A stretch of DNA of 64,000 nt, taken from assembly GCA_037968775.1 (NCBI GenBank), contig JBBKWD010000072.1, forward strand, positions 11,339 through 75,338, written 5' to 3'. How positions within the stretch are numbered: position 1 is the first letter of the stretch; each line of letters begins with the position of its first letter. The stretch is from Bdellovibrio sp. (GTDB lineage Bacteria > Bdellovibrionota > Bdellovibrionia > Bdellovibrionales > Bdellovibrionaceae). Both the position numbers and the translations under genes were made by a program. Under the pieces are notes generated by a model. It had not been told where the DNA came from. It was given only the letters and a program-made list of their open reading frames with translations, and did no database searches. This document shows, piece by piece, positions 22,545 to 50,864 of this stretch.

Positions 22545-22545
22545 T

Positions 22546-28362: not shown

Positions 28363-29712
28363 ATGTCGAGAATTGAAACTGAGAAAAAAAACTTTCGTGA
28401 CAAGCTCAATGCCGTCAGCCCCTCATTTTGCCTGGCAAAGTGGCTGCAAGTCACCATGCACCTTCATAGTGGGCATAATCACTCCTGTCATCATCCCGGA
28501 ACGCATAAAACTCCACTTTCGGAATTAAAGAACAACCCCTCAGCCCTGCATAACACTTGTTTTAAAAAAGTGCAGCGTGCGGACATGAAAGCAGGTAAGC
28601 GCCCTTCTGAATGTGAGTACTGCTGGAACATTGAAGATCTGGGCCCGTCTTACTTAAGCGATCGTACATTAAAATCTTCAGAGTTTTGGGCGGCTCCCGA
28701 GTTTGAGCGGGTTTCAGCTATGGCGAATAGCGAAAACATCAATCCAACCTATGTTGAAGTCAGCTTCAGCAATGTCTGCAATTTCCGATGCAGCTATTGC
28801 TCAGGAAATTTTTCGACGCGATGGACAGATGACATTTCCCGAAACGGATCTTACTCAACTCGCAACGGTGAACAAACCATGGACATCCTGCCAGAGGAAA
28901 ATAATCCCTATATCAAGGCCTTTTGGGAGTGGTGGCCCGAACTCGTAAAGAACCTCAAGGTTTTCCGAATCACAGGTGGTGAGCCCCTTCTTTCGCCAAA
29001 TACCTTTCGCGTGCTAGAGGAACTCAGCCGCAATCCCCAACCTGATTTAGAGATCGGAATCAATTCCAATCTAGGAATATCGGACGCCTCATTTCAAAAG
29101 TTTTTGGCGTTGGCCAAGGACCTAACCGAAAATAAAAAAATTAAAATGATTCGACTTTTCACAAGCGTGGAAGCTTGGGGAGAGCGAGCTGAGTATATCC
29201 GCAACGGCCTGCAGTTCATGCGCTTTCAACGGAATCTCGAAACCTTTCTCAAGGAAGTCCCTCAAGGGCAGGCCGTCATAATGGCAACCTTTAACTCGCT
29301 CAGCTTGACTTCTTTTACTGACTTGCTCTTGTATGTGAAGGGACTTAAAGAAACCTACACTTTGGATCCGGCAAAGTGCCCTCTATTTATTGATATTTCC
29401 TATCTCCGTCACCCTGACCACCAAAGCATTCAACTTTTGCCCGCATCTTATCAAAAAAAGATGAACGATATCTGCGACTATATGGAGCTCAATAAAGTTA
29501 CCGACAAGGATCCAGCTGGATTCTATTTTTTCGAAGTCACGAAAGCTCAACGAATTCTGGAATGGATGAAGCAACCTTTAGATGATGAAAAACTCAACGA
29601 AGGACGTCGGCACTTTTTCAAATTCTTTTCAGAGCACGATCAACGTCGCCAAACTAACTTTTTAAAGAGCTTCCCTGAAATGACAGACTTTTGGGACCTA
29701 TGCCAGCAGTAA
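28363..29712 (+). CDS. Radical SAM enzyme with N-terminal Cys-rich (twitch-like) domain, paralog 1
   Basis: CxxxCxxC motif in SFSNVCNFRCSYCSG. The N-terminal Cys set comprises FCLAKW, SCHHP, TCF and CEYC. The C-terminal tail ...FLKSFPEM is shared with the paralogs. Confidence 0.8.
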   Translation: MSRIETEKKNFRDKLNAVSPSFCLAKWLQVTMHLHSGHNHSCHHPGTHKTPLSELKNNPSALHNTCFKKVQRADMKAGKRPSECEYCWNIEDLGPSYLSDRTLKSSEFWAAPEFERVSAMANSENINPTYVEVSFSNVCNFRCSYCSGNFSTRWTDDISRNGSYSTRNGEQTMDILPEENNPYIKAFWEWWPELVKNLKVFRITGGEPLLSPNTFRVLEELSRNPQPDLEIGINSNLGISDASFQKFLALAKDLTENKKIKMIRLFTSVEAWGERAEYIRNGLQFMRFQRNLETFLKEVPQGQAVIMATFNSLSLTSFTDLLLYVKGLKETYTLDPAKCPLFIDISYLRHPDHQSIQLLPASYQKKMNDICDYMELNKVTDKDPAGFYFFEVTKAQRILEWMKQPLDDEKLNEGRRHFFKFFSEHDQRRQTNFLKSFPEMTDFWDLCQQ

Positions 29713-30734
29713 CAATAGGACTCGTTATTCATAATGAGTCCTTAAATCTTCCAGGGCTTCTACAAAACCTCGAAGATATTCTGATTCCCGACTCTGTGGA
29801 TATTCTCATCGTCGATAATGCTTCGACTGATTCAACCCCAGAAATAGTGAAAAAGTGGCAAGATGCGCAGACCAGGAAATGGAAAACTTCAATTATTTCT
29901 CGCAGAGTCAATAACTTGGCTGAAGCCCGAAATGACGTTATTCAAAATGCAGATACCGAATGGATTTTTTTTACAGATGCCGACTGCCGCCTTTCCAGTG
30001 AGTCCTGGCAAAAGCATTTAGACTTTATAGACTCACCTTTACTCACGCCCCGGATTGCAGCGTTTGGTGGCGGGAACCGACCTTGTGGCCCTAAGAGCTT
30101 TATGACCCGTGGACTTCAGACGATGAGTCTTAATGGACTTGCACATATGGGGTCCATTCAGCTCCGCAGCCCACGAAGCACTGAAAAAGTGTCCTTGCTT
30201 TCAACTTGCAATCTCATGTTACGGACCCGGATCGCGCAAGAGTGCGGTGGTTGTGATACTCGATTCCACCCAGTGGGTGAGGATTTGAGTCTTTGCCATC
30301 GGCTACTGGACAAGGGCTACTCTTTACTTGCCGTGCCCCACATCACTGTTGATCACTATCAGACACAAAACCTGAAGATCTGGTCCAAGAAAATGTTTCG
30401 CTATGGCGGGGCCCAAATTAAAGTGGCCCAGACTTATCCTCGACACTTAAGAGGCCCTCGTGGGCTGCAGCTCTTAGGAGGACTTTTGCTTAGCGGCTAT
30501 TTCCTCATTCATCCGCTTCAAATAATTTTATTCTTGGGAGCCTATGCCGCCCTCTTCATCTTGCTGTCCGTACAATCGGGGATCACAAATGGGAAAAATA
30601 TTTTTTCTGGAATGAGTTTAAGTTTTATTTCTCACGCTTGCTATTTTGCAGGGGAAGTCGACTCCCTAGGACGCTGGCTTTGCTCCACACTTGTTCGATT
30701 TTTCCCCTCAAAATTCCAACTCGAGAAAGAATAA
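29700..30734 (+). CDS. Family 2 glycosyltransferase with C-terminal TM helices (GtrB/ArnC/DPM1-like architecture)
   Basis: ATG 29700 overlaps the upstream rSAM gene by 13 nt. Motifs VTIGLVIHNES, ILIVDNASTD and FFTDADCRL. Hydrophobic C-terminus LLGGLLLSGYFLIHPLQIILFLGAYAALFILL. Confidence 0.8.
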   Translation: MPAVTIGLVIHNESLNLPGLLQNLEDILIPDSVDILIVDNASTDSTPEIVKKWQDAQTRKWKTSIISRRVNNLAEARNDVIQNADTEWIFFTDADCRLSSESWQKHLDFIDSPLLTPRIAAFGGGNRPCGPKSFMTRGLQTMSLNGLAHMGSIQLRSPRSTEKVSLLSTCNLMLRTRIAQECGGCDTRFHPVGEDLSLCHRLLDKGYSLLAVPHITVDHYQTQNLKIWSKKMFRYGGAQIKVAQTYPRHLRGPRGLQLLGGLLLSGYFLIHPLQIILFLGAYAALFILLSVQSGITNGKNIFSGMSLSFISHACYFAGEVDSLGRWLCSTLVRFFPSKFQLEKE

Positions 30735-31494
30735 GGAACAAAATCAGGCCCGGAATGAGACTGACTGCAAGACCGGAAAGATCAAACTTTAATGCGCCAC
30801 TGAGATTTCTTTTTCCAGCGGCGACTCCTTGGCGATAGGCCCGCTTTGCGAAAACATCGAAATTAGACTCGTCAATATGAGTGATCGAGAAATCAGAATG
30901 CCAACGCCCGCTAAATGAAGTCTGGCGTTCAAGATTCAGCAGCATTTCTTTTTCCTCTCCGCCCCAACGCAACTCTGCAGGAAAGACGATGGCTGCTTTG
31001 ATCACTGCCGAGCCAAAGATGAAACCACCTAAAAGATGCACTTGACCACGATCTGTCTGTCCTGATCGCAACCACAATTGGTTCACGGCCTGATACACAC
31101 GATTCCAGTAGTTGGATTTACCTTTCAAAATATAGCTGCCGCCATGAACACGGTTTTCCTCTGCCGAGATCTCAAAAATTCTGGCAATAATTTCGGGATT
31201 CTCGATGAGGCAGTCATCGTCCAAGAAAATAAAATAGCGACCTTTTGAAATGCGCAATCCCAAATTTCGCGCATTGGACACGCCACCTAAATGGCTGAGA
31301 TAGAATTGAAAATCAGAAAACTCCTGTTTGAGCTCAGTGATTTTTGAGGACTCTAAGGCCTCATCCACGATCACCAAGACTTCATAGGATTGTACGTCTG
31401 GCAATCCCTGCAAGGCCTGCAGACATCGTCCTAAATGGCGCCCCTCTTTCGTGGCGATTATTATGCTGAGAGACGGTGTCTGAGGATTGCCCAA
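30625..31494 (-). CDS. Family 2 glycosyltransferase
   Basis: Motifs LSIIIATKEG, VLVIVDE and IFLDDDCLI, with one C-terminal hydrophobic helix. The 3' end overlaps the convergent GT2 gene by 110 nt. Confidence 0.75.
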   Translation of the reverse strand: MGNPQTPSLSIIIATKEGRHLGRCLQALQGLPDVQSYEVLVIVDEALESSKITELKQEFSDFQFYLSHLGGVSNARNLGLRISKGRYFIFLDDDCLIENPEIIARIFEISAEENRVHGGSYILKGKSNYWNRVYQAVNQLWLRSGQTDRGQVHLLGGFIFGSAVIKAAIVFPAELRWGGEEKEMLLNLERQTSFSGRWHSDFSITHIDESNFDVFAKRAYRQGVAAGKRNLSGALKFDLSGLAVSLIPGLILFLILSRVGILRGKIEQVWSKASVLGSRLPLQNSKREK

Positions 31495-32153
31495 AAAAAC
31501 TTGACTCCATCTGAAAGAGGATTGAGTTTCGATTCGCCTCGGCGCTCTTCATAGCGAATTTGCATTTCCGAAAACTTCATTTTGCCATTAAGAATCTGCA
31601 AAGTCAGAGCCATAGAATAACTCAGATCATTTTGACCAACGCTGCAAAACTCCTCTTTTAAATGCGACCGGAACAATCGCATACCCGTGCACGGATCCCC
31701 AATGTGGGGAAAACCAAATAACTTCAAACAATAGTAGTAGAGATTATTTCCAACTCTGCGAACAAAGGGCATCCCATTGGCTTGCCCCAGGCGATTTCCG
31801 AACAGGACATCCAACTCTTGGGTTTCAAGTTGGTGGTAAATCTCTGGCAGCTGGCGAATATCGTAAGTGTCATCCATATCTAAAAAAACAATCAAATCAG
31901 ATTTGGCATGGCGAAAGCCTTTTTTTAAAGACGCCCCATAGCCCTCGCATCTCTCAGAACGCAATACCGTCAGATCTGAAAACTGCCTCAACATTTCGGA
32001 GGAGCGATCATTCGAACCGTCATCCACAACAATCACTTCTTGAACTTGAGGCATTTGCAATCGCAGCTCATGGACTTTTGCCATAACGGCGACGATAGCC
32101 TTTTCCTCGTTGTGGCAGGGAATAACGATGCTGACGGAAGGAGATTTTTTAAT
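31461..32153 (-). CDS. Family 2 glycosyltransferase (polyprenol-phosphate glycosyltransferase-like), probable ATT start
   Basis: Track ORF starts at ATG 32084, but the GT2 motif SVSIVIPCHNEE is encoded in frame upstream of it. There is no ATG/GTG/TTG between the in-frame TGA (32168-32166) and 32084. AGGAG at 32165-32161 lies 7 nt before ATT 32153. Other motifs: VIVVDDGSNDRS, LDMDDTYD. Confidence 0.7.
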   Translation of the reverse strand: MKKSPSVSIVIPCHNEEKAIVAVMAKVHELRLQMPQVQEVIVVDDGSNDRSSEMLRQFSDLTVLRSERCEGYGASLKKGFRHAKSDLIVFLDMDDTYDIRQLPEIYHQLETQELDVLFGNRLGQANGMPFVRRVGNNLYYYCLKLFGFPHIGDPCTGMRLFRSHLKEEFCSVGQNDLSYSMALTLQILNGKMKFSEMQIRYEERRGESKLNPLSDGVKFFWAILRHRLSA

Positions 32154-33525
32154 AAACCAGCTCCTTCATCTCCGGGAAGGTTTCACCGAAGTTCAGCTTA
32201 CGAATTCCATCCATATGTTGAATATACTCTTTAAATTCAGGCAGACGATTAGACCAGTCCTCAGAGTTCATAAACTTTACGAGGCCCTTGAGACGTTTGA
32301 TCCCGTATTCGCTTTCTTCCAAACGAACCGGATCTGGATGGTTCTCGTGCAACCACTTGTAAAAATCTTCATACTTTTCTGCGACCTTTTGCTTAAACTC
32401 TGGCGGCAGAACTTTCACATTCAAATGGGCCGGATGATAAACGAAATGGAAGTTGATCAGCCCCGCCCCCAATGGCCACGGATTTATTTTTTTAAATCCT
32501 TGAGTGAGCTTCCACTTAATAAAATCAGGAATATAATAAATATTTAAAATTTGCACGGCGCAAGCAACGGTCACCTCGATATGAGCCTCAGACTGATCCA
32601 AACGATGCAGCTGGGCCTCGATCTTAGACCACTGCGAAGGAAAACGAATGTAGTGATTCATCTCCCCAATGCTATCGATACTAAAATGAAAACGAACGCG
32701 GCGAAATTGCTTCCAAAGGTCAAAAATTCGCTCTGGCATTTCTAAGCCGTTGCTATTGTAGCGAAGCTCGATATTTTTCGCATGGCCTTGCTCAATGCAT
32801 TGCTCGAGCAATTTATAGTGCTCTTCAATGATGGTACTTTCCCCGCCGGCAAAATAAAGTTGCTGCAGATTCGGCAACTGAGTTGTCAAACCCTTCCAAA
32901 ATTCCGGGTTGTCTGAAAACCAGGTATAACTGGCGCCATCGACCTTGCCTTGTGAAGGCCACTGAATCGTTTCTTTGAGTTGGGGATTTTCGACCAAAGC
33001 ATGAAGCTTATTCCAATCGCCGACCCAGCGTGAACTGTCGTGAGGCGAACACATGATACACTTTAAATTACACTTTGTGCCCAAACGCAAATCGATATAA
33101 GCAATATGAGGTGGGACCTCTCCCTCGGGAGTTGTCTTTTCGATAAGCGCCTTGGTGTCGATTCTCTGACTCCAATATTCAGTTTCCCAAATTCTCTTGG
33201 AGCGATGTCCCGCGGCCTCTTCCTTAAAACACTTCAAGCAAGAAGGCGGTTGTTCTCCGCTCAACATCATCTGCCGAACTTTTCGCATATAAGGGCCATT
33301 CCAAGCTTCGAGCAAACTGACCTGACCAAGATTGGCCGGAGCCCCTGACTCAGTCTTCAAGATCCCCACTTCACCACCATATTTTTTATCATTGGTTTTC
33401 CCAGCTGAGGACGCATTTGCCGTACAGCACAAACGCATATGCCCATTAGGACGGGTGGAAAGATGAATCCATGGAAGGATACAAAACGAAGATGTTACTT
33501 GGTCCGGATGAAGGCGTTCTGGCAT
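32149..33525 (-). CDS. Radical SAM enzyme with N-terminal Cys-rich (twitch-like) domain, paralog 2
   Basis: N-terminal FCILPWIHLSTRPNGHMRLCC...CLKC, then LGTKCNLKCIMCSP (CxxxCxxC). It aligns by eye along its length with the 49491-50864 protein. Confidence 0.8.
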   Translation of the reverse strand: MPERLHPDQVTSSFCILPWIHLSTRPNGHMRLCCTANASSAGKTNDKKYGGEVGILKTESGAPANLGQVSLLEAWNGPYMRKVRQMMLSGEQPPSCLKCFKEEAAGHRSKRIWETEYWSQRIDTKALIEKTTPEGEVPPHIAYIDLRLGTKCNLKCIMCSPHDSSRWVGDWNKLHALVENPQLKETIQWPSQGKVDGASYTWFSDNPEFWKGLTTQLPNLQQLYFAGGESTIIEEHYKLLEQCIEQGHAKNIELRYNSNGLEMPERIFDLWKQFRRVRFHFSIDSIGEMNHYIRFPSQWSKIEAQLHRLDQSEAHIEVTVACAVQILNIYYIPDFIKWKLTQGFKKINPWPLGAGLINFHFVYHPAHLNVKVLPPEFKQKVAEKYEDFYKWLHENHPDPVRLEESEYGIKRLKGLVKFMNSEDWSNRLPEFKEYIQHMDGIRKLNFGETFPEMKELVY

Positions 33526-33552
33526 AGCTCAACATGATGTAATAACTATTGA

Positions 33553-34923
33553 GTGTTTGCAACAGGTGCCCTCTTAAATTACATTATCAGAGTGGCACGT
33601 CATTTTCTTGTAGAGCGAAATTCATTTCATAGTCTGACTCCTTATGGCTCCAAGGAAAGCGCTCTTTCGATTTCTTCGTGGGATTACTCCTTCACAACTC
33701 TCAAGCTGCAGGATATCGAGGCCAATAAAATCCAAATCCCCTTGGTGTTGAACTCCACTGCCTTTGACTTGCTGCCTTCTCCAGAGCTAGAAGCCATACT
33801 GATGAGCCAAACAGCTCCTGTTCGTTTGCAAATCTCCCTTGGCGCAGAGCTTACACGACACCAAGCCCTGGTTTTTGGACTCCTCAAAGATGGGTGCGGA
33901 CTTGATTTCCTTATAGACCGCCCTATCCCTGATGCGTCGCGAGCTATGATCGCTGAATTATGTCAGCAGTTTGATATCCGACTTTGTGTTTTGGTGAATC
34001 GATACTTTTCCACTCAAGAGACTCTTCGATCACTTCCGAAAGAGGTTAAGGATAATATTTTCCTGCTTCTTCTGCCGCCCCTGAATTCTGGATCTCACTT
34101 TTGCGCGCCGGATCATGTATACCGAATTCTGAGCGAACTTGAGGGGACCTGGCGTCTTTTGGTTTTTGAAAATGCTCTTGGACAACTGCCTCCCGGGGCC
34201 GAAAAGAATTTTTATACTCACTTTGATATCGAGAATTTTCTTGAGGACTCCAAAAGCATTCGTACCTATCACACTTTTAGAGAAGTCACCGTTTGGCTTT
34301 TGCAGAGACGTTGGATTTTTTTCTTAGATTTCTTACATTCAATTTTGCTCTTGGTACGCAATCCTTCACTAGCAAAGTTTTCGCAACTGCTTTCAATTTT
34401 AATCCGCCCTCTTAAAAACTTAATGAGAGCTGCAAAATATTTCACTTGGAAATTAAAGATGGGCGGCCACGCAGTTTATATTTTTTTTAGATACCGCTCA
34501 CTCACCCAAGTCTATTCATTTGTTCGCTACGAATGCGTTAATAAAGGTTTTTATTGGTCGCGCGAAAGGTCGGTACGGGTTTGGCACTTTTGTAAATACA
34601 ATTTGGCGATCCCGTTTTACTATGGAATTCGCGGATTCGGACCTCAAGCATGGGTGTTCTTTCGACATCGAGTCTTCGGTCTCGCAAAGGGTTTTGTCGT
34701 TCAAATCTGGATGCTAATTAAGTTTCAACTCATTCATAGAATTTTTATCTTCTTTCGATACACAGCATTCGGGTGGATTCAAATTGCTTGGGGTCAAGCT
34801 TGGCGCCTGAAGGAAGTTCTTCGCGTTCTGCTTTTTCCCATATTCAAAGTTTTTTGGTTTTTTTCCTATCAATTTCGAACTCGCGTCTCTCCTCTCTTCA
34901 AAAATGAAGTCGAAGACGAATGA
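33553..34923 (+). CDS. Unknown protein with C-terminal aromatic/basic FFR[YH] repeat region
   Basis: 456-aa ORF (GTG start uncertain). The C-terminal ~200 aa carries the recurring motifs IFFRYRS, VFFRHRV, IFFRYTA and WFFSYQF. Its stop overlaps the next GT2 start (ATGA). Confidence 0.5.
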   Translation: MFATGALLNYIIRVARHFLVERNSFHSLTPYGSKESALSISSWDYSFTTLKLQDIEANKIQIPLVLNSTAFDLLPSPELEAILMSQTAPVRLQISLGAELTRHQALVFGLLKDGCGLDFLIDRPIPDASRAMIAELCQQFDIRLCVLVNRYFSTQETLRSLPKEVKDNIFLLLLPPLNSGSHFCAPDHVYRILSELEGTWRLLVFENALGQLPPGAEKNFYTHFDIENFLEDSKSIRTYHTFREVTVWLLQRRWIFFLDFLHSILLLVRNPSLAKFSQLLSILIRPLKNLMRAAKYFTWKLKMGGHAVYIFFRYRSLTQVYSFVRYECVNKGFYWSRERSVRVWHFCKYNLAIPFYYGIRGFGPQAWVFFRHRVFGLAKGFVVQIWMLIKFQLIHRIFIFFRYTAFGWIQIAWGQAWRLKEVLRVLLFPIFKVFWFFSYQFRTRVSPLFKNEVEDE

Positions 34924-36738: not shown

Positions 36739-36755
36739 GAGTTTTAATGGCGGTA

Positions 36756-37214
36756 TTAGAGTTTGATCTGAACATAACTGTGTTCAGACTCATTTTCAGT
36801 GGATGGCATCTCTTGAAATCCGAAACTTTCGTAAACCGGCAATGCCGATAGCCTAGGGTAAGACCACATTTTCTGAAACCCTTGCTTTCGGCCCCACTCC
36901 CTCTGTGCATTCATTAACATCACAGAACCGCCCTGCTTTCGATAGTCCGGTTCCACATATAAACCTCGAATACGGTACGTCAGAGCAGAGGTTCCATGGC
37001 CCGATAGCACGCCGATGAGATTTTCCCCTCTAAAAAGGCCCACAAAATAGGGCTCATATTGATGGTAAATTTGCAGGTCATAACCACCCCCTAAAAGCAT
37101 AGAGCTCATGGGACGTATCGCATCGGTGCGCGTAGGCCAAAGTTTAGTGCGCCAAAATGGCAGGACTTCTGCAAAAGTGATTTGTTTGATAGAAAAATTC
37201 ATAAGTTCTGCCAT
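36756..37214 (-). CDS. GNAT-family N-acetyltransferase
   Basis: 152 aa. LYVEPDYRKQGGSVMLMNAQREWGRKQG is an acetyl-CoA-binding motif A-like segment. Confidence 0.6.
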   Translation of the reverse strand: MAELMNFSIKQITFAEVLPFWRTKLWPTRTDAIRPMSSMLLGGGYDLQIYHQYEPYFVGLFRGENLIGVLSGHGTSALTYRIRGLYVEPDYRKQGGSVMLMNAQREWGRKQGFQKMWSYPRLSALPVYESFGFQEMPSTENESEHSYVQIKL

Positions 37215-37223
37215 AATAATATC

Positions 37224-37772: not shown

Positions 37773-37795
37773 GACGAAATTTTTCAGGCCGCGAA

Positions 37796-43628: not shown

Positions 43629-43661
43629 AACAATCGCCACTCTGGCATTAATCTTTTCATC

Positions 43662-44372
43662 ATGACGAAGCCACTTTTTATAGTCGACGACTGGGGCATG
43701 AGCCCTGCGATCAACGAAGCCGCGCTCTTTCTGGCCCAGCAAGGCTGGCTGTATGGAATTTCTGTCATTGCGAGATCACGATTTTATGCTCACCAACTTC
43801 AAGAAGTTCTCGCCTGTGACGTCAAAGTGGGCTGCCATCTCAACTTAACCTTTGATCTGAATCCAGCACTTCCCGAAAGCTCCACTTGGCTGGGAACAAC
43901 TCAACAAATTGCGAAAGCTCTGGGCACGGGCCTGTTTTTCAATCAAAAAATTTCGATAGAAATAAATCAACAAGTGGATTGGGTTCGAAAGCACATAGGA
44001 CGATTGGACTATTTGGATGGGCATCATCATATTCACTTGTATCCGGGGGTTTTGAAGGCCAGCCAGGCCGTGGCCGCCTATAACCAGATCCCACTGCGAG
44101 TGGTGACGGACTCTTCGTTTAAAAGTAACTACGGATTGGCTTTGTGGGCCAAGTGGGCCCTTAAAAAATCAGACTACTTCGAGTGTCTATATCTCAATCA
44201 AAATGATATCGAAACAGATCGGAACTTACGCGCAAAGGCGCTGAATACTCAAGAACTACCTGTGGCCGTTCATCCAGCCACTCGGAATGACTTTGCTGAA
44301 AATAAAGTGGCCGATCTTTTAAGTGCGGATCGCGTGATTCAATTTGAAAAAATTAAATCTGCCCTTTTGTAG
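43662..44372 (+). CDS. YdjC/ChbG/HpnK-family carbohydrate deacetylase
   Basis: N-terminal FIVDDWGMSPAINEA (metal-binding Asp) and DGHHHIH motif. Confidence 0.75.
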   Translation: MTKPLFIVDDWGMSPAINEAALFLAQQGWLYGISVIARSRFYAHQLQEVLACDVKVGCHLNLTFDLNPALPESSTWLGTTQQIAKALGTGLFFNQKISIEINQQVDWVRKHIGRLDYLDGHHHIHLYPGVLKASQAVAAYNQIPLRVVTDSSFKSNYGLALWAKWALKKSDYFECLYLNQNDIETDRNLRAKALNTQELPVAVHPATRNDFAENKVADLLSADRVIQFEKIKSALL

Positions 44373-44380
44373 ATCTTCGT

Positions 44381-45418
44381 TTAAAAATAGCTTTCTAACT
44401 TACCGGTGCGTTTTAAATCTAAAGTCACACAGTGGGCTCCTCCACCTAAAGTTCGTTGATGGCGCATTTTTACAGGAATCACATTGATCTGATTTTTCTC
44501 AAGTAAATTTATCAAAGGCACTTGAGTTGCTTCCACGATGGCCAAATCCGGTCGAACCATAAAAAGATTCATGCCAATCCACGTCGAGGCATTCTCATAG
44601 GGGGCCTGAAATCCAATGTCTATTGGTTCTGGACACCACAGCACATCCCATTTGTCTAAAGGCGCCGGTATAGAGTCCTTCTGAATGCGAGCGGGATTGA
44701 GCAGAGCCAAACCAGGGCGCAAGAGCGAAATCGTGCTATCAATGTGCATATAAGAATAAAGACCTTCCAAGGTGTGCACTTTAAATTCTTGCCCCAGTAT
44801 CGATTGCAACCAACGGGCACCTTTTAGATTTCCGCTATTAGAAACTAAATAGAACAAATCCCGCCCACATCGCAAAACATTGGCAGCATCAAAGCAAATT
44901 TCTTCATTCGTGAGAGTTGGGATCTTGGGTTCGGCCTTATCCAAATAGTTATTATCTGACAGCAAGGGCCGAGGGGCACTGAGCCACTTGGCCCCCGCCT
45001 CAAAAGCTTGTGCGAACAGCGCTCGATAAGCCAGGGTTTCTGAATACCGAGCCCGAATGGGCATAGGAGTTTCGATGATCATATCGCCAATCACCAGGGC
45101 CGAATCCCGGGGACAGAAAAAGTATTGCGAGTCCGATTTCCAAAAAGGATTTCCATGTTGCGAACTAGAATCAAATACTTGAGGCCGATGCACTTGAATC
45201 CCCAATTTTTCAAACACCTGACATAGCTCCGTCAAATCTTCCTCGGCCTCTTCAATCACTTGCTGGGGGTAGGCTCCTGAGGGAATGAATCGAGCGTCCT
45301 CGAGTTGTGCATAAGCTATGGCTTTCAAACTCGTGTCCACCTGGGGCACGCGTGCCCCCAAAGCCGTCCCCACAAGGACAGACTCTAGAGGGTCCCATTC
45401 ATTCCAGCTATTAATCAT
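44381..45418 (-). CDS. Amidinotransferase (glycine / inosamine-phosphate amidinotransferase family)
   Basis: Motifs SWNEWDPLESVLVG, CFDAANV (Asp), YMHIDSTI (His) and LGGGAHCVTLDLKR (Cys). These align along the full length with the remembered AGAT/StrB1 pattern. Confidence 0.85.
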   Translation of the reverse strand: MINSWNEWDPLESVLVGTALGARVPQVDTSLKAIAYAQLEDARFIPSGAYPQQVIEEAEEDLTELCQVFEKLGIQVHRPQVFDSSSQHGNPFWKSDSQYFFCPRDSALVIGDMIIETPMPIRARYSETLAYRALFAQAFEAGAKWLSAPRPLLSDNNYLDKAEPKIPTLTNEEICFDAANVLRCGRDLFYLVSNSGNLKGARWLQSILGQEFKVHTLEGLYSYMHIDSTISLLRPGLALLNPARIQKDSIPAPLDKWDVLWCPEPIDIGFQAPYENASTWIGMNLFMVRPDLAIVEATQVPLINLLEKNQINVIPVKMRHQRTLGGGAHCVTLDLKRTGKLESYF

Positions 45419-46875
45419 AGTGGTTTCTCATTTCTCTGTTCATTTTCTTTTTGAATAAAGGCGTGCATATCCGGAAGAAGCCCTTCAAGCAAACGGGATC
45501 GATTGCGCGCCAGACGTGGTTGCATTTTTGTCAGCAACGCTTGCAGGTCTGCTAAGGGCTGACTTAACAAACTATCTAAGAGATCCAAAACAGCCTGCAT
45601 ACGCTCTCCATGATTCAAAATTTCATCGTAGCTTTCATCCCAAAGGTCCGCGAAGGTTTCAAATCCCATCTCTCTGAGGTATCGAAGCATTTGGGGCCCC
45701 CCGACCACCACAAACGGGCGCATATAGAGAATCGGCAAAAATGTTTTTTCACTGATTTCGCCACACAAAGTCCCAAATCTCGTCTCGTTCACCACCGCCA
45801 AAAACGCTTCTGAATACCAGGCATAAAATTCAAATCCCGTTCGTAGGTTGGACTCGCCGTCAGCATCGGGCAACGAAAAACCTTGAGGGTCTAAAACTTT
45901 GGAGTTTTTTGAATCCAACACCAGGGGCAGCTTCTTCTGCATTCCTTGAATCCCGTCTTGAATTTGATGCCACCACGAAAGATTCTCGGGATTAAATGGC
46001 AACTCATTGCGAAAGTGCACCGGATCATGACGATGAAAGAAGCTGATCGATCCCGATTGACTATAACTCGATTTTTGATTCGCTGGCTGATTTCGCGTCT
46101 GAATTTGGCCTTCCAAAAAACCAACAACAAGCTCTCGTACACCTTCATAGCGAAAATTTGGGCAAATAAATTTTTTGCTGACGAGAGTGTTAAATGGAAA
46201 GCCATTTTTCGTAAACTCGGCATCGCGATCAATCTCTCTTTCAACTAAACTCCGGCAAAGATCTGCAAGAAAAAAATCCCACGTTTGCACCTGAAGAGAG
46301 TGGTACATATTTTTAGATCGCAGATAAGTTCCCAGCCCATAGTCACACACATAGACCTTGGCGCGAATCGTTCCGCCGTGATTAAAAATGAAATCCTCAA
46401 CCCAGCCCAGTTCAGGAAAAAAGGGCTTTGAATCCGTGTGAATAAAGGCGGGTGATCTTTGGTCCTCGTTAGTTCTTTGAAAAAGGGGTTCATAGAAATA
46501 AAACGCCACTTCTTTTCCCTGCAACTGCTTTAACTCTGACCCCGTGAATTTAAGTCGACTGAGTAAATTAGTATCCCCATTGATCAAAAACCACGGACGC
46601 TTTTCTACCGTCAAAAAAATATCCAAATACTTCTTTAGCCAAACTTTTTTATAGTCCAAGGGAGGTCGGCGCAACAGGATTTCATCATGACAGGTCACCA
46701 TGGTATAGCTGTCAGTCGACTCATGATTCCCATTTAATTTGTAGGTCACCGAAAAATAGTGGGCATTATAAGAAAGTAACGAAGGATCATGCAACATGGG
46801 AACCGAGGAAGAACGAAAATTTCTTCCCATTAAAACATCTCTCCAACCTCGTTTATCCTGGATTTTAAGAGCCAT
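45415..46875 (-). CDS. Unknown 486-aa protein inside the sugar-tailoring operon
   Basis: No confident family. The C-terminal block VVNETRFG..GEISEKTFLPILYMRPFVVVGGP..L..L...GFETF loosely recalls the nucleotide-sugar-binding half of some GT-B transferases. Confidence 0.5.
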   Translation of the reverse strand: MALKIQDKRGWRDVLMGRNFRSSSVPMLHDPSLLSYNAHYFSVTYKLNGNHESTDSYTMVTCHDEILLRRPPLDYKKVWLKKYLDIFLTVEKRPWFLINGDTNLLSRLKFTGSELKQLQGKEVAFYFYEPLFQRTNEDQRSPAFIHTDSKPFFPELGWVEDFIFNHGGTIRAKVYVCDYGLGTYLRSKNMYHSLQVQTWDFFLADLCRSLVEREIDRDAEFTKNGFPFNTLVSKKFICPNFRYEGVRELVVGFLEGQIQTRNQPANQKSSYSQSGSISFFHRHDPVHFRNELPFNPENLSWWHQIQDGIQGMQKKLPLVLDSKNSKVLDPQGFSLPDADGESNLRTGFEFYAWYSEAFLAVVNETRFGTLCGEISEKTFLPILYMRPFVVVGGPQMLRYLREMGFETFADLWDESYDEILNHGERMQAVLDLLDSLLSQPLADLQALLTKMQPRLARNRSRLLEGLLPDMHAFIQKENEQRNEKPL

Positions 46876-47524
46876 GCTGATGAAAAACTTCTAGCTTGCT
46901 CAGATCCGGATAGTCCGCCGAGTGGCCCGTTTGCAGAGGGTGATTCGTAATTTCGTCCATTAGCAAGATGCCGCGTGCGGCATCTTCTGGTGTCATATAG
47001 TAATGATAGCCTAAAGTCTGAATTGGATCCTGCTTCCAGGTGCGCCCCCGAGTCCTGCCATCGTAACTTGCTCGGCGCAACCATTCGGCCGCTTTCGCAT
47101 CAGAAGTCAGAATCATCCCGCCGCGACCGATCGGAAGTCGTTTCTTTTGCTGAAAGCTCAGACAAAAAAATGTGCCCTTGATATAGCTGTTTTCAGTGTA
47201 ACTCATGCTCGCGTCTACGACTGGATAAGGACTTAAGCTATAGTGATCTTTCCACTCTCTGTCGACCCATTGAATCTGGCACTGCAACTTCAAAACTGTC
47301 ATCGGTACACTGACATAGGTTCTTTTCGGGACCTCAATTGAGCCTTTGGCGTTGAGGTACCGCAATGACAACTCTATTGCGTGGCTACAGCAATCCACGG
47401 CCACTGCGTACGGTGCGCCGATATAAGCCGCTACCCGTTCTTCAAATAGAGTGACCACATCAAAGGGATCACTAAATTCAATACCTTTTTGTTTGAGAAG
47501 TCCCAGCTCATTTCGCTCGAGCAT
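46865..47524 (-). CDS. Short DegT/DnrJ/EryC1/StrS-like PLP-dependent sugar aminotransferase-like protein
   Basis: YIGAPYAVAVDCCSHAIELSLRYL matches the N-terminal family pattern. LSFQQKKRLPIGRGGMILT matches the SF..K...GEGG active-lysine block. At 219 aa it is much shorter than typical members. Confidence 0.5.
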   Translation of the reverse strand: MLERNELGLLKQKGIEFSDPFDVVTLFEERVAAYIGAPYAVAVDCCSHAIELSLRYLNAKGSIEVPKRTYVSVPMTVLKLQCQIQWVDREWKDHYSLSPYPVVDASMSYTENSYIKGTFFCLSFQQKKRLPIGRGGMILTSDAKAAEWLRRASYDGRTRGRTWKQDPIQTLGYHYYMTPEDAARGILLMDEITNHPLQTGHSADYPDLSKLEVFHQHGS

Positions 47525-48341
47525 ACATTGTCACCATTTCTCTGAGGCCGTCTTCAACTTGGCTAAAATCGCTGCCAAAAAAATTTTGAATTTGAATCTT
47601 ATAGTTCCGGCTGTCCCCTATATTGCTTAAACTGAAACTCAGGGGCTTTTCTTCAAAAACCTTGGATTTTAAAATATCGGTTTTAGTCAAATTTTCGGTC
47701 ACGATGTTTTGCGGCCCCACCCAAGAATCCAGTAGGCAGGCCTCAAGTGTTCGAGCAAAATCCTGACAATGAATATAGGGTCTCCAAGCATCGGGCGCAT
47801 AGATCTCGAGATGCTCCGAATGAGCAGCAGAACGCGCCAATTGATTAATAAATAAATCATTTCGCATTTTTTCGGACCAACCATAAGCTGTTCCAAAGCG
47901 ACAAATACGGTGAGGCAAAGAAAGTTTTTTTAAAATCTCTTCCACCGCCAATTTGGATTCAGCATAGTGGCTGGTGGGATTCACGATTGACGACTCCGTG
48001 ATGAGTTCCTCGGAAAATCCATACACACTGCAGCTCGAAGAAAAAATTACGCGCTTAAGATTTGGTAAATCAGAAACTTTATTTAAAAAATTCTCATGCA
48101 TACGAATATTATCTTTTAGATTCTCTGCGTGAATATCTTGAAAACGCCGATCCGCCAAGTGCACGACCGTCGTGACATCTTGAACGCCTTCCGACAGCGG
48201 ATCAAAAGACTCCAGGTCATTCAAGACTTGATCTCTATCTAATCCTAAAAATGAAATTCTTTTCCCAAGATGACTCCCAATATATCCGGAGGAGCCGGTC
48301 ACCAATGTCATCCCCGCTTCCCGATTATCGAGTGTTGCCAT
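47508..48341 (-). CDS. NAD-dependent sugar epimerase/dehydratase (extended SDR)
   Basis: VTGSSGYIGSHLG is a Rossmann motif, and YAESK is a YxxxK catalytic motif. An alternative start at ATG 48311 is possible. Confidence 0.75.
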   Translation of the reverse strand: MATLDNREAGMTLVTGSSGYIGSHLGKRISFLGLDRDQVLNDLESFDPLSEGVQDVTTVVHLADRRFQDIHAENLKDNIRMHENFLNKVSDLPNLKRVIFSSSCSVYGFSEELITESSIVNPTSHYAESKLAVEEILKKLSLPHRICRFGTAYGWSEKMRNDLFINQLARSAAHSEHLEIYAPDAWRPYIHCQDFARTLEACLLDSWVGPQNIVTENLTKTDILKSKVFEEKPLSFSLSNIGDSRNYKIQIQNFFGSDFSQVEDGLREMVTMYARAK

Positions 48342-49494
48342 ATTGTTTCACCTGACATCCTGGAATTTTTAGAACGGTTCGCCACGGATCAACCACGACA
48401 CTGTCATGAACAAATCCCACTTTGGTTTCCCAGTTTTCATAAGGGTGCGCCAAAAGGTACACTGCAGGGTTGTGAGGGATTTCATTGTAGCCCGCCAAGG
48501 GATCAAAGAGCAAAACTTTGACTTTATATTGCTGCAGATAGTGCGCCACCAGCAAACTGAAACTGCCATCAACTAAGGCACACTGAGGTTTAAAGCCCAC
48601 TCCTAAAATACAGACTTCTTTGCCATAGCCGGCTAAGTGTCGAGCCATGTTCTGCGCTTGTACCTCACGACTGTGAATGATTTCACCGAACAGATCATAC
48701 CCCAACTCGAGTCTTTTCGCGAGGTCTCGCAAGGCAATATTGTCGCGAGGATGGCAAGGCCCACCATCCCCCATGCCGGCCTTCATATAGGTGGGGCTTA
48801 AAATTCTTTGGTTCGCACGAGTCAATGCCTCCGTAACCACATCTACATTCATATGACCGATACGTTCGGCTACATCTTGGATCATATTTACGAAGCTCAG
48901 CTTAAAACTAATAAAAGTATTATAGAATATTTTTATTGATTCGGCTTCCTCCCAGGTACCTAAGGCGATGGGCGGCCGATCAATGAAAGTCTGATAGAGT
49001 TCCTCTAGGCGTTCAATTCCCGCATTGGAACCATCTCGAGTTCCGATTGGCAATAGCTCCGGATTCAAAAAATCCGCCTTCACTGTTCCCATCGCGATAA
49101 AGTAGGGATTGTAAATCAACTGACCTTGTGGCAACAAAGGCGCCAGCTCTATTCGAGTAGTCCCCGGCAATACTGTTGAAATAAGAACCACTGTCGCAGC
49201 GGGGTTGAGATTGTGAATATCTGAAAGAACTTTTTTAACTGCTTCATAACTGAAGTTCTTTAATGGCAATTGCGATACAGGCAAGCTGCCGTCGTAAGCA
49301 CGATCGTGGGGAGTCGGGACTGCCACCAAGATCAGGTCCTGATTCAAAACGACCTCTGAAAAGGTTTTGGCTATTTTCAAAGTTTCAGATTGAATAGCCG
49401 GGTCAAGATCAAAACCTGTGACTTCATGTTTCGTCGCCATAACCTCGGCACAAGGCAAACCCAACTTCCCTAAACCAATCATTCCCACTTTCAT
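48325..49494 (-). CDS. Nucleotide-sugar 6-dehydrogenase (UDP-glucose/GDP-mannose dehydrogenase family)
   Basis: MKVGMIGLGKLGLP forms the NAD fold. GDGGPCHPRDN matches the catalytic-Cys motif GGxCxxKD. Confidence 0.75.
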   Translation of the reverse strand: MKVGMIGLGKLGLPCAEVMATKHEVTGFDLDPAIQSETLKIAKTFSEVVLNQDLILVAVPTPHDRAYDGSLPVSQLPLKNFSYEAVKKVLSDIHNLNPAATVVLISTVLPGTTRIELAPLLPQGQLIYNPYFIAMGTVKADFLNPELLPIGTRDGSNAGIERLEELYQTFIDRPPIALGTWEEAESIKIFYNTFISFKLSFVNMIQDVAERIGHMNVDVVTEALTRANQRILSPTYMKAGMGDGGPCHPRDNIALRDLAKRLELGYDLFGEIIHSREVQAQNMARHLAGYGKEVCILGVGFKPQCALVDGSFSLLVAHYLQQYKVKVLLFDPLAGYNEIPHNPAVYLLAHPYENWETKVGFVHDSVVVDPWRTVLKIPGCQVKQYGNTR

Positions 49495-50864
49495 AACTCA
49501 ACTCCCGAATTGAACAACATATTCGAGTACTCCGGTGACACTACATCTTGAAACTTTTCATTTCGTATGCGATCTAAATTTTCTGTGTATTTCAAAAATT
49601 CATCAAAGTAGCTAGATAAATCCCGAGCCATCAAGTGATGAGCCAAACCTCTGTAGAGCTCTTGCCACTTGGCGATCAAGTGATCCGCCTCGGTCTTTTC
49701 ATATGCCATAAGACGGAGTCTGTCCTCAAAACGTTTTTGCAACAGTGGTATGGCTCGCAAAAGCTTTGCCTTTGATTCTTCTGGAAGGCACTGCACATTC
49801 AAAAACTCTGGTTTATGTAACACATGATGAGTCACCAAGGGTTTTTTTGAAGAGGCGTTGATCTTATTAAATCTCTTTTGCAACTTCCAAAGAATTAAAT
49901 CCGACAGATCATAAAAGTTAATTATCGAAACTGTACAGGCCAACCAAACCACGATATTCGGCGATGAAGCATCTAGACGTTCTAAGTTTTTTTCAATCAC
50001 TGAAAATCGACTCGGATTGCGAATAAAGTCGTTCAATTTCCCATGAGCATCGACACTGACACCAATACGAACTTGCTTAAAGTTTTTCCAAAGATCTAGA
50101 GCCTTCTCTGGCAAGATGGTCAGATTGGTGTTGTATTCCAGAACCACGCGAGCAGAAAGCCCCCGGGCAATGAGGTGATTCAAAAACTCATAGTGCTTTT
50201 CGATCAACAGTGGTTCGCCACCGACGACATAGATATGCTCAAGAGCCGTAGAGTTTCTTTCTAGGTCGATCCAGAACTCTTGGCTCTCATGCCAATTCAA
50301 AGTAGCGGGGGCCTCGTAGGCCTTTCCATTCAAGACTTTAAAATCTTCGTACCAAGCCGACGAATCCGTCGGTCCACACATTCGGCACTTTAGGTTGCAC
50401 TTATTTCCAAATCGAAGGTCCAGATCCATCACGGGATGATCACCGGTCACAATAGAGCCGTCTTTTGATGTCTTCGACAGAGTCTGCTCCCGATTTGGCA
50501 AGAGAAGTTCATTTGCATAATTTCTTTTCGACCTCAAACCACTGGATTCTTCCCGCTGACAACGTCCACAGGCTTCGGGCCACTCGCCTTGCGCCATTTG
50601 CGAGCGAACTTGCTTTAAGGTCGCGGAATTTCTGGCAGCTTCAAAACGATGAGTTCCAGCGTTGAGAGCCTGACCCTGCTCGTCTTTGAGCACTCCCCTC
50701 TGATCCGAGACATTGGCGTGACAGCAAATACGGAACTGCCCATCATTTCTAATGGCGACAGACGACCAAGGCAGGGGACAGAAAGTGTCTTGGATATTCA
50801 TTATAAAATTGCTCGCTGTCTCATATCCAGAATGACCCGGCGATGAGTGAAGTGTCTTTGCCAC
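49491..50864 (-). CDS. Radical SAM enzyme with N-terminal Cys-rich (twitch-like) domain, paralog 3
   Basis: N-terminal FCPLPWSSVAIRNDGQFRICC...CGRC, then FGNKCNLKCRMCGP. ATGA overlap with the dehydrogenase gene. Confidence 0.8.
   Translation of the reverse strand: MAKTLHSSPGHSGYETASNFIMNIQDTFCPLPWSSVAIRNDGQFRICCHANVSDQRGVLKDEQGQALNAGTHRFEAARNSATLKQVRSQMAQGEWPEACGRCQREESSGLRSKRNYANELLLPNREQTLSKTSKDGSIVTGDHPVMDLDLRFGNKCNLKCRMCGPTDSSAWYEDFKVLNGKAYEAPATLNWHESQEFWIDLERNSTALEHIYVVGGEPLLIEKHYEFLNHLIARGLSARVVLEYNTNLTILPEKALDLWKNFKQVRIGVSVDAHGKLNDFIRNPSRFSVIEKNLERLDASSPNIVVWLACTVSIINFYDLSDLILWKLQKRFNKINASSKKPLVTHHVLHKPEFLNVQCLPEESKAKLLRAIPLLQKRFEDRLRLMAYEKTEADHLIAKWQELYRGLAHHLMARDLSSYFDEFLKYTENLDRIRNEKFQDVVSPEYSNMLFNSGVEL

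Follow-up and report, generated by a model that had tools for sequence, protein, structure and literature searches.

What kind of product calls for five radical S-adenosylmethionine (SAM) enzymes and six family 2 glycosyltransferases (GT2) encoded side by side? The question is raised by a stretch of 64,000 nucleotides from Bdellovibrio sp. (assembly GCA_037968775.1, contig JBBKWD010000072.1, forward-strand positions 11,339 to 75,338), here called the window, in whose own numbering all positions are given. Its positions 28363-50864 hold 22 open reading frames (ORFs), which a first-pass annotation had described as a glycan island rich in radical SAM genes. Our reading, to which we give a probability of about 0.5, is that the region is a chromosomal island for glycoconjugate biosynthesis with stepwise radical editing of sugars, arranged around a conserved set of radical SAM proteins (R1 to R5) and the protein U242, which has a predicted methyltransferase fold.

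Radical SAM proteins of the island

The five CxxxCxxC motifs were present exactly as the first-pass annotation quoted them, and 5/5 proteins reached the cut-off of PF04055 (29.5 bits). R2 lies exactly on this cut-off with 29.5 bits, yet it gave 439 bits against the NCBIfam family NF033640, "twitch domain-containing radical SAM protein". R1, R2 and R5 belong to this family (327-439 bits, cut-off 170 bits), and R3 (45.7 bits) and R4 (41.6 bits) fall below it. No NCBIfam family was above cut-off for R3, the best NCBIfam match of R4 was far below its cut-off, and no NCBIfam equivalog was found for any of the five. In Pfam, R2 has a SPASM domain above cut-off at residues 15-99 and the radical SAM core at residues 149-289; a SPASM-type domain of R5 (residues 29-103) reached 21.0 bits against a cut-off of 21.5.

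R1, R2 and R5 are mutually 20-34% identical, which indicates old and distinct lineages. Judged by their sequences, the five radical SAM proteins are five distinct orthologous groups. Among the ORFs tested in the window we found one sixth radical SAM gene and only this one outside the island, the housekeeping RlmN gene (58296-59492), so that five genes in 22.5 kb represent a real concentration.

The claim that the locus has no obvious characterised counterpart was borne out by NCBIfam, PDB, the names of orthologues and the literature. The orthologues in Bdellovibrio sp. HCB2-146 are named just "hypothetical", "radical SAM protein" or "twitch domain-containing radical SAM protein", and the 4857 relatives of R3 carry generic names throughout. 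Literature searches revealed no study of the NF033640-type family or of the cassette. No significant match was obtained in a PDB sequence search with R2, R3 and R4, and among solved structures, sequence searches (R2, R3, R4, G1 and the GT-C-like neighbour) and a fold search with the R2 model revealed no relative closer than generic radical SAM cores.

Coupling to glycosyltransferases

All six GT2 proteins (G1 to G6) passed PF00535 (E 3e-6 to 8e-24) with DxD or DDD in the expected place, in agreement with the earlier assignment. The transmembrane helices attributed to the GT2 proteins were predicted in only two of the six, G1 and G2.

In the window, four radical SAM genes have a GT2 gene as their direct operon partner. 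R1 overlaps G1 by 22 nt; R2 is followed by G3 and G2; U242, R3 and G5 follow each other with overlaps of 1 nt and 22 nt; and R4 overlaps G6 through ATGA, with the YdjC-family gene next. The fifth radical SAM block begins with R5 and continues with the genes for the 6-dehydrogenase, a short-chain dehydrogenase/reductase (SDR), the DegT-like protein, U486 and the StrB1-type amidinotransferase.

The same kind of arrangement was found in other genomes. A homologue of the window GT2s was present in 21/57 other Bdellovibrionota loci, and 12 of these 21 contained a same-strand adjacent pair of radical SAM and GT2 genes. G5 and G6 are paralogues, and homologues of G5 recur beside R3, R2 or R4 in other Bdellovibrionota loci. 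In a protein of 621 aa on a 3.3-kb Logan contig (P0340), an R3 orthologue (64% identity over 370 aa) is naturally fused to a DPM1-like GT2.

The reading frame of G3, which is DPM1-like by motifs judged by eye, extends upstream of the ATG at 32084 through a canonical GT2 N-terminus, SVSIVIPCHNEE. The orthologue in HCB2-146 begins at TTG, and the same codon reads TGG here. An ATT at 32153 has AAGGAG 7 nt upstream and overlaps the R2 stop codon, and it is the probable start of G3. The counterpart of G2 in HCB2-146 is a conserved ORF (375 bits of similarity) left uncalled in the public annotation. G1 (+) and G2 (-) are convergent, and their 3' ends overlap by 110 nt (30625-30734).

Distribution in Bdellovibrionota

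The closest public relative of R2 was found in Bdellovibrio sp. HCB2-146 with 87% amino-acid identity. At E<=1e-10 we found 3415 relatives of R2; the top 120 are all at least 62% identical, and the alignment of 15 relatives showed a mean column identity of 70%. A scan with R2 over one genome per species, which reached close R2 relatives only, revealed 73 loci, ~58 of them labelled Bdellovibrionota and including megabase contigs or complete chromosomes (OZ242254, 2.9 Mb; CBDCLX010000002, 3.0 Mb). A second scan, of IMG/VR, gave at least 600 matches; the best 80 of them, on contigs up to 328 kb, show 56-63% identity to R2. For the best-kept members of the set the viral identities are 55-70%.

Comparing synteny over Bdellovibrionota and other phyla, as the first-pass annotation had suggested, we found the cassette conserved in ~58 Bdellovibrionota genomes. 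R2 is its best-conserved member, with 62-70% identity in most Bdellovibrionota loci. The island proteins were compared with all ORFs of the loci, and presence was counted from at least 400 bits for R3 and at least 300 bits for R4. Together with R2, R3 was present in 44/58 Bdellovibrionota and 33/80 viral loci, R4 in 44/58 and 75/80, and U242 in 28/58 and 70/80. The median number of radical SAM genes per locus of at least 15 kb was 6 in Bdellovibrionota (maximum 10) and 9 in viral loci (maximum 14), and 22/40 Bdellovibrionota loci of this size had five or more. The locus had been taken as exceptional. The concentration of radical SAM genes in the window stands, but the uniqueness does not: a radical SAM-rich arrangement is common in the phylum, and the proposed uniqueness among glycan loci must be tempered accordingly.

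R5, R1, U289, the amidinotransferase, the hydroxylase and the pair of dehydrogenase and U486 recur in subsets of Bdellovibrionota and viral loci. The sugar context of the Bdellovibrionota loci consists of GT2s, a weak PMT_2 match, and an NTP-transferase with a kinase. The accessory proteins of the loci mostly have no Pfam domain. Among those that could be recognised, a QueC-like PP-loop enzyme was counted in 48 loci and a carbamoyltransferase in 21; the others are an Asp/Asn beta-hydroxylase, ThyX and ThyA.

The most frequent accessory (95 loci) is a protein family of 230-320 aa, here called c0, located beside U242 or R2 in most cassettes, with the conserved motifs DIFF-SY-E, VVDGDN and YG-GGVKLFP (for example L046:9174-9866, L016:9217-9939 and L080:7241-7969). 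In some viral contigs it is fused into proteins of 920-1374 aa. It is absent from the window, has no specific Pfam match, and gave nothing in a PDB profile search or in profile comparison with G3 and G5. We considered c0 as a small GT-A protein from the resemblance of its DGDN motif by eye, which the profile searches did not confirm. Minimal cassettes composed of c0, R2, R3 and R4 sit in unrelated, housekeeping contexts.

In some genomes, among them a Bdellovibrionales metagenome-assembled genome (MAG; loci L002/L028, 3.0-Mb contig), an R2 orthologue occurs with neither R3 nor R4. Its neighbours are an oligopeptide ABC transporter on one side and an RseP-like M50 protease/TsaB on the other, and a weak R5-like radical SAM gene lies ~4 kb upstream. 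R2 can therefore be found away from any glycan-type context. R2 homologues were also detected in a Candidatus Parcubacteria MAG (L053, 1.27-Mb contig), in Dojkabacteria (L054) and in the predatory Micavibrio (L076). Bacteria of the candidate phyla radiation (CPR) and Micavibrio, present here in small numbers, live attached to other bacteria, like phages and Bdellovibrio.

Further R2 matches came from MAGs labelled Acidimicrobiaceae, Chloroflexota, Planctomycetota, Verrucomicrobiales, Thermoplasmata and others, with GC of 0.28-0.37. Several of these off-phylum contigs (L048, L051-L052, L056, L059, L061-L064, L069-L070) had one-strand arrays of 10-13 radical SAM genes, and the six "other-phyla" loci, probably viral, had a median of 11.5. 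Considering this GC and the phage-like one-strand arrays, they are probably mis-binned viral contigs, and we did not take them as a wide spread across phyla.

Viral contigs and phages

The viral loci contained up to 14 radical SAM genes per 21 kb. One contig (L108, IMGVR_UViG_3300008963_000718) carries separate full-length homologues of R1 to R5 with 40, 61, 59, 41 and 39% identity, together with U242 and the hydroxylase, all on one strand. Since all five are found there as separate homologues, the set of the window is an inherited one and not a local expansion. Over the viral homologues, the identity was 41-45% for R4 and 39% for R5. A sugar dehydrogenase, a carbamoyltransferase and an amidinotransferase also occur in viral loci. 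The best reading of these data is that the set of five radical SAM proteins plus U242 would be common to Bdellovibrionota and aquatic tailed phages.

Few viral hallmarks were detected within 10 kb (PHROGs matches to ThyA, ThyX, a ClpP-like protease and a carbamoyltransferase). A viral origin of the IMG/VR contigs finds its best support in the BFVD fold search with the predicted R2 model, in which radical SAM proteins of "uncultured Caudovirales phage" showed TM-scores of 0.6-0.7; against the "MoaA/NifB/PqqE family" proteins of KVP40 and phi-pp2 the TM-score was ~0.5. Annotated GenBank phages contained no close R2 homologue, the best having 22% identity. On one 242-kb contig (L098, IMGVR_UViG_3300020477_001008) a bacterial-type DnaK/Hsp70 gene (316-2208; 58-68% identity to GenBank dnaK) is located 8 kb upstream of the cassette.

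Comparable genes have been mentioned in phages. Pelagimyophages have "radical SAM cassettes" inside a tail-fibre "host recognition cluster", noted in passing with no analysis of function (PMC7029224). In the cyanophage S-SCSM2R, ORF305-309 include a trio of DegT-like, radical SAM and amidinotransferase genes called "antibiotic synthesis genes", likewise not analysed (PMC12801897).

Layout, composition and gene content of the island

The ORF list confirmed the gene inventory and the coordinates of the 22 ORFs (Table 1). Compact operons had been described, and six multi-gene strand blocks were indeed found; two further genes, for the GNAT protein and the hydroxylase, stand single. Junctions between island ORFs are mostly overlapping or <=60 nt apart.

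GC is ~0.45 and flat over the whole 64-kb window. GC at third codon positions (GC3) is 0.466 in the island and 0.452 in the flanks, and the codon-frequency correlation is 0.81 between island and flanks and 0.93 between the two flanks. A tRNA scan of the 64-kb window found none. The comparison of GC and codon usage, which the first-pass annotation had proposed, thus revealed no compositionally foreign island, and we rejected a compositional island or recent transfer, there being no foreign signature in GC, GC3, codon use or tRNA scans. With flat GC and similar GC3, "island" is used here as a functional term and not as a compositional one.

Pfam was run on ~50 ORFs over the window, of which 7138-8712, 10790-12535 and 55496-57037 had no match. 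The flanks are of housekeeping kind: pyruvate dehydrogenase E2 and E3, a clostripain-family peptidase, PhoH, TonB, an aminopeptidase and an extracytoplasmic function (ECF) sigma factor, and further phosphoglucose isomerase, a GGDEF-FHA protein, two PfkB kinases, RlmN and dienelactone hydrolase. Just beyond the island lie a gene for a 307-aa protein without family match (51148-52071, +) and one for an FHA-GGDEF diguanylate cyclase (52103-53032, -).

Table 1. Genes of the island and its left-hand neighbours in the 64-kb window
Gene	Position	Strand	Assignment	Match or feature
fibre	23639..26194	+	S74-type trimeric fibre (MAT-like), 851 aa, N-terminal signal/anchor	Pfam Peptidase_S74 E 4e-16
s133	26194..26595	+	small secreted Cys-rich protein, 133 aa	three tandem repeats ending [YF]CNG[TS]xW
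GT-C-like	26612..28297	-	multi-transmembrane protein, GT-C-like candidate, 561 aa	6-9 predicted transmembrane helices
R1	28363..29712	+	radical SAM, N-terminal twitch	CNFRCSYC; PF04055 37.5 bits; NF033640 326.8 bits
G1	29691..30734	+	GT2 with two C-terminal transmembrane helices	PF00535 E 6e-21; helices at 261-298; DAD at residue 96
G2	30625..31494	-	GT2 with two predicted transmembrane helices	PF00535 E 2e-10; DDD at residue 92
G3	31461..32153 (ORF list: 31461-32084)	-	DPM1-like soluble GT2	PF00535 E 8e-24
R2	32149..33525	-	radical SAM, N-terminal twitch	PF04055 29.5 bits; NF033640 439 bits
U456	33553..34923	+	no assigned family; first gene of the U456-G4-U289 block	no Pfam, NCBIfam or PADLOC match
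G4	34920..35882	+	GT2	PF00535 E 5e-15; DDD at residue 84
U289	35869..36738	+	PLP-enzyme-like (fold type I aminotransferase-like), recurrent cassette accessory	
GNAT	36756..37214	-	GNAT acetyltransferase	PF00583 E 5e-11
U196	37182..37772	+	small Fe(II)/2-oxoglutarate beta-hydroxylase (Cpz10-like)	profile vs 7V4F E 3e-28
G5	37796..39250	-	two-domain GT2 (N-terminal ~200 aa of no assigned family, then GT2)	PF00535 residues 211-351
R3	39229..40362	-	radical SAM with Cys-rich C-terminus, core cassette member	PF04055 56.4 bits
U242	40362..41090	-	predicted class I SAM-methyltransferase fold, core cassette member	AlphaFold model pLDDT 84
R4	41146..42240	+	radical SAM, core cassette member	PF04055 44.2 bits
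G6	42237..43628	+	two-domain GT2	PF00535 residues 193-294; weak Glyco_transf_7C match
YdjC	43662..44372	+	YdjC-family carbohydrate deacetylase	PF04794 E 9e-25
amidinotransferase	44381..45418	-	StrB1/AGAT-type amidinotransferase	profile vs 1BWD E 1e-66
U486	45415..46875	-	no assigned family	no Pfam, NCBIfam or PADLOC match
DegT-like	46865..47524	-	DegT/DnrJ/EryC1-like protein, truncated, 219 aa	PF01041 E 8e-18, two stretches
SDR	47508..48341	-	NAD-dependent epimerase/dehydratase	PF01370 E 6e-20
6-dehydrogenase	48325..49494	-	nucleotide-sugar 6-dehydrogenase	PF00984 and PF03721; TIGR03026 169 bits vs cut-off 189.8
R5	49491..50864	-	radical SAM, N-terminal twitch, first gene of the sugar-tailoring operon	PF04055 40.8 bits; NF033640 378 bits

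Most tailoring functions assigned at first sight held. The YdjC, GNAT, SDR and nucleotide-sugar dehydrogenase proteins passed Pfam, and a 47% identical homologue of the last was found in the viral locus L100. For the amidinotransferase, Pfam gave only a weak arginine-deiminase match. A profile of this protein and seven homologues matched StrB1 (1BWD) over residues 3-353, and AGAT, SxtG and HsvA at ~1e-53; His225, Asp227 and Cys330 are invariant and were equated with the StrB1 triad from position only. We conclude from the profile match that the protein is a genuine member of the amidinotransferase family.

The Asp/Asn beta-hydroxylase-like cupin was confirmed in U196, which has no Pfam match; its profile matches Cpz10, the Fe(II)/2-oxoglutarate beta-hydroxylase of caprazamycin biosynthesis (PMC9814697). 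Its HxD...H and Arg are invariant, and homologues occur in viral loci.

The class I methyltransferase-like protein, U242, was recovered through a fold search. Foldseek with its predicted model gave 737 PDB matches at E<=1e-3, and the top listed are SAM-dependent methyltransferases (TleD, Fur6, TehB) with TM-scores of 0.5-0.6. The GGW-G loop and the DID motif are conserved. U242 has no Pfam or NCBIfam match; none of its 874 relatives is named, and those listed have no methyltransferase Pfam domain. By its predicted model U242 has a class I methyltransferase fold; it may act as a methyltransferase, or it may use SAM in a nicotianamine-synthase-like way.

Two pyridoxal phosphate (PLP)-enzyme-like proteins had also been named. 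The DegT-like one was recovered in truncated form (219 aa): it covers only profile positions 26-96 and 178-258, with ~97-177 and the C-terminal domain missing, and may be a degenerate or non-catalytic remnant. The other, U289, gave only weak matches to aminotransferase profiles (E 0.02-0.7); the Lys in its SLSK motif and Asp158 are invariant, and its homologues adjoin R5-type radical SAM genes in many loci. A homologue of U456 was found in HCB2-146 only, and weak homologues of U486 adjoin UGD in L059 and L100.

Export route and neighbouring fibre

Among the ~50 window ORFs searched with Pfam we found no Wzx, Wzy, Wzz, ABC exporter or WbaP/WecA-type primer, as had been stated before, and no Bac_transf or Glycos_transf_4 match that would reveal an initiating phosphoglycosyltransferase. 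No GtrA or ArnE-ArnF flippase was seen among the tested ORFs of at least 90 aa. The GT2s had been called GtrB/ArnC/DPM1-like. G1 has the topology of such an enzyme, but the label was not supported by its sequence matches: its best PDB matches are SunS/ThuS, archaeal PcManGT and TarS and its best NCBIfam matches are MftF and EpsD, not GtrB, DPMS or ArnC.

The neighbouring product of 26612-28297 has multiple transmembrane helices and a soluble C-terminal part, but its assignment to GT-C lies below threshold, with Pfam PMT at 19.9 bits against a cut-off of 22.7. No NCBIfam or PDB match was found for it. From its predicted topology it may be a GT-C protein. A route of GtrB/ArnC kind plus GT-C is weakly supported; the periplasmic or surface acceptor that the first-pass annotation proposed is plausible.

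The fibre gene on the same side of the island encodes SDRRLK, that is, an SDxxxK motif. This motif was defined, and S74-type MAT fibres of prey recognition were described, in B. bacteriovorus, with no mention of glycosylation there (PMC10769870). s133 has three N-x-S/T sequons and six Cys after the signal peptide, with no Pfam or PADLOC match; its orthologues in L004 (71% identity) and L071 (52% identity) likewise have the fibre and GT-C-like genes as neighbours. The trio of fibre, s133 and GT-C-like genes stays beside the radical SAM and GT2 genes in HCB2-146 and also, with rearranged order, in the distant MAG locus L071 (R2 64%). This adjacency hints at a possible functional link to the island in the Bdellovibrio lineage.

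An iterated S74-domain hidden Markov model (HMM) run over all 156 loci detected fibres near the cassette only in HCB2-146 and L071, so the cassette is not in general linked to a fibre. Of 57 other Bdellovibrionota loci, 2 have an S74 fibre within 10 kb, and of the viral loci none; a genome with 13 S74 fibres would be expected to show about this rate as background. A rule that the cassette sits beside fibres in cellular genomes was unsupported by this search, and a link of the island to its neighbouring S74 fibre is weakly supported. Divergent upstream of the fibre gene, an ECF sigma factor gene and a 187-aa ORF for a possible anti-sigma factor are located at 22074-23166 (-); such a pair suggests dedicated regulation of the fibre.

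Proposed function and its alternatives

From the observed enzyme families, operon coupling and conservation and distribution of the cassette, we infer its substrates, radical reactions, carrier and export or transfer step as follows. A common nucleoside diphosphate (NDP)-hexose or NDP-N-acetylhexosamine (NDP-HexNAc) would be oxidised to a uronic acid, on which the SDR and PLP enzymes would then perform keto and amino chemistry. The product could be amidinated, N-acetylated or deacetylated (GNAT/YdjC), hydroxylated by the Cpz10-like protein and methylated by U242. The radical SAM proteins would edit unactivated C-H positions through reactions such as oxidation, epimerisation, deoxygenation or formation of C-C or C-methyl bonds. 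Each would work together with its partner GT2, by supplying the donor for it or by editing the residue that this GT2 has just added. Because G1 and G2 are membrane-anchored by prediction, assembly would take place at the cytoplasmic face of the inner membrane, and the GT-C-like neighbour may hand the product to an envelope acceptor.

Several points weigh against this glycoconjugate reading. No radical SAM protein of the cassette has a characterised relative, and the chemistry is thus read from context only. The predicted R2 model (pLDDT 75) has no close solved structure, its best PDB fold match being CteB (E 1e-3, TM-score 0.30), and characterised SPASM/twitch radical SAM proteins are mostly peptide maturases. 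Homologues of the window GT2s were found in 0/80 viral loci, so the cassette can work without them, and c0, ubiquitous in those loci, is glycosyltransferase-like by eye only. The DegT-like protein is truncated. The lipid-carrier step has no priming transferase or flippase among the tested window ORFs, the best matches of G1 are not GtrB or ArnC, and the GT-C candidate is below threshold.

A wider proposal is tentative, and we consider it possible at best: the five radical SAM proteins and U242 would be the core of an undescribed toolkit for radical carbohydrate editing, exchanged between tailed phages and predatory Bdellovibrionota, which with 10-14 radical SAM proteins per locus would produce hyper-diverse surface or adhesin glycans for recognition or evasion of host or prey. 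In such a toolkit each pair of radical SAM protein and GT2 may be one module that adds a sugar and radically edits it. Phages and Bdellovibrionota both must attach to other bacteria.

The fold match of R2 to CteB, a sactipeptide synthase, opens the question whether the substrate is a protein or peptide: the radical SAM proteins and SunS-like GT2s would cross-link, hydroxylate and glycosylate a secreted protein such as s133, the S74 fibre or, in phages, tail-fibre and virion proteins. The best solved relatives of G1 are the peptide S-glycosyltransferases SunS and ThuS, SunS appears in its NCBIfam list too, and an Asp/Asn beta-hydroxylase gene adjoins R2 in the viral locus L082. The trio kept beside the island both in HCB2-146 and in distant L071, the six Cys and three N-x-S/T repeats of s133, and the pelagimyophage cassettes within a host recognition cluster (PMC7029224) agree with such maturation. 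However, the SunS match covers the N-terminal 100 aa only, and it is weak, as is the CteB TM-score. Pfam detected no RiPP recognition element (RRE)/PqqD domain in any of the five radical SAM proteins; among ORFs of at least 90 aa, none that is small and conserved goes with the minimal cassettes, very small ORFs not having been systematically searched; and fibres lie near the cassette at about the background rate. The accessories (StrB1-like, Cpz10-like, nucleotide-sugar dehydrogenase) are of the small-molecule or sugar kind, and we regard maturation as improbable. These same accessories might point to a diffusible aminoglycoside-, aminocyclitol- or nucleoside-like molecule in place of a surface polymer, in view of the full-length match to the streptomycin enzyme StrB1, the hydroxylase matching Cpz10 of caprazamycin biosynthesis (PMC9814697), the natural-product methyltransferases as nearest folds of U242, the PLP aminotransferase-like proteins, the QueC-like PP-loop enzyme and carbamoyltransferase that recur in related loci, and the trio of DegT-like, radical SAM and amidinotransferase genes read as antibiotic synthesis genes in S-SCSM2R (PMC12801897). 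Six GT2s, two of them membrane-anchored, and a GT-C-like membrane protein speak against it; no exporter, resistance gene or regulator of antibiotic-cluster type was found among the window ORFs tested; and the very high conservation over hundreds of phages would argue for a structural or host-interaction role. A diffusible product is therefore also doubtful in our opinion.

The remaining two explanations are the least supported of the four. An ordinary O-antigen, capsule or exopolysaccharide locus, with its export and priming genes elsewhere in the genome, would account for the typical sugar-nucleotide genes (dehydrogenase, SDR, DegT-like, GNAT), for the many GT2s with weak NCBIfam similarity to EpsD, HpsE and HfsG, and for a composition that matches the rest of the chromosome. 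It is very unlikely, given that the ORFs tested over 64 kb contain no Wzx, Wzy, Wzz, ABC transporter or WbaP/WecA, that the same radical SAM set exists in phages without window-type GT2s, and that minimal cassettes sit in unrelated housekeeping contexts. Lowest of all we place nucleic-acid hypermodification or antiviral nucleotide chemistry, with radical SAM proteins that are viperin-like or modify phage DNA. ThyX/ThyA homologues and QueC-like genes do lie beside or inside viral cassettes, and the best sequence matches of R3 in PDB and PADLOC are viperin-like enzymes, but viperin_w_prok, with a cut-off of 180 bits, gave no more than 37.7 bits and PADLOC pVip no more than 39 bits, in the radical SAM core only. 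No DpdA/TGT-type inserting enzyme was seen, and in the bacterium, genes for membrane GT2s and sugar-nucleotide enzymes stand between those for the radical SAM proteins. As a candidate, a defence system was rejected, PADLOC having given only the weak pVip core matches.

Comparison with known systems

The radical SAM chemistry known to act on sugars comes from a handful of antibiotic pathways. The radical SAM set described here is conserved at 40-70% identity over a predatory phylum and hundreds of aquatic phage contigs, and this breadth of distribution makes its function more worth solving. Solving the pathway would probably reveal new carbohydrate radical reactions and would account for one of the largest blocks of unassigned genes in the variable regions of marine phages; it may also help to understand how the surfaces of predators and phages are displayed or masked. 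With Bdellovibrio sp. HCB2-146 a carrier is in culture, and therefore genetics looks feasible.

R1, R2 and R5 share the architecture of the NF033640 family, an N-terminal Cys-rich twitch/SPASM-like domain followed by the radical SAM core, and R3 and R4 are outside it. This family is defined by architecture, and we found no assigned function, solved structure or paper for it. In aminoglycoside tailoring, the logic of BtrN joins a twitch radical SAM dehydrogenase to an aminotransferase. The island has an amidinotransferase of the StrB1/AGAT family, and PLP aminotransferase-like proteins lie beside twitch-type radical SAM genes in many loci; by analogy, an order of oxidation, amination and amidination is plausible. 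The differences are that the twitch domain is N-terminal in the island proteins and C-terminal in BtrN, that no relation to BtrN or DesII was detectable in sequence and no close one in fold, and that the context is six GT2s and not an aminocyclitol pathway.

The likeness to Gtr, Arn and PMT systems consists of the two C-terminal transmembrane helices of G1, the soluble G3 that is DPM1-like by motifs only, and the adjacent multi-transmembrane protein with a weak PMT match. G1 is nearer to SunS, PcManGT, TarS and MftF, no flippase of GtrA/ArnEF type was found, and the GT-C match is below threshold. With maturases of the radical SAM/SPASM type and glycocin S-glycosyltransferases from pathways of ribosomally synthesised and post-translationally modified peptides (RiPPs), the likeness of R2 to CteB and of G1 to SunS is weak and limited to generic core regions; the island has no RRE domain by Pfam and no precursor peptide, with very small ORFs outside the systematic search. 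Clusters of the Wzx/Wzy or ABC type for O-antigen or capsule resemble the island in sugar-nucleotide tailoring genes, several GT2s and compact operons, but among the tested 64-kb ORFs the flippase, polymerase, chain-length regulator, ABC exporter and primer are missing, and the island has five radical SAM genes, each joined with a GT2 gene or with a tailoring operon.

As to the cassettes of pelagimyophages and S-SCSM2R, aquatic phage contigs carry the same radical SAM orthologues with a sugar dehydrogenase, an amidinotransferase and PLP enzymes; the IMG/VR contigs may or may not be those phages, and the viral versions have no window GT2s. The enzymes of the island are thus of known superfamilies and glycan islands are of a known kind, and for their combination no characterised counterpart was found. 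The new combination is a fixed set of five radical SAM families and a one-to-one coupling of radical SAM to GT2 genes, probably common to a predatory phylum and aquatic phages, with up to 14 radical SAM genes in one locus.

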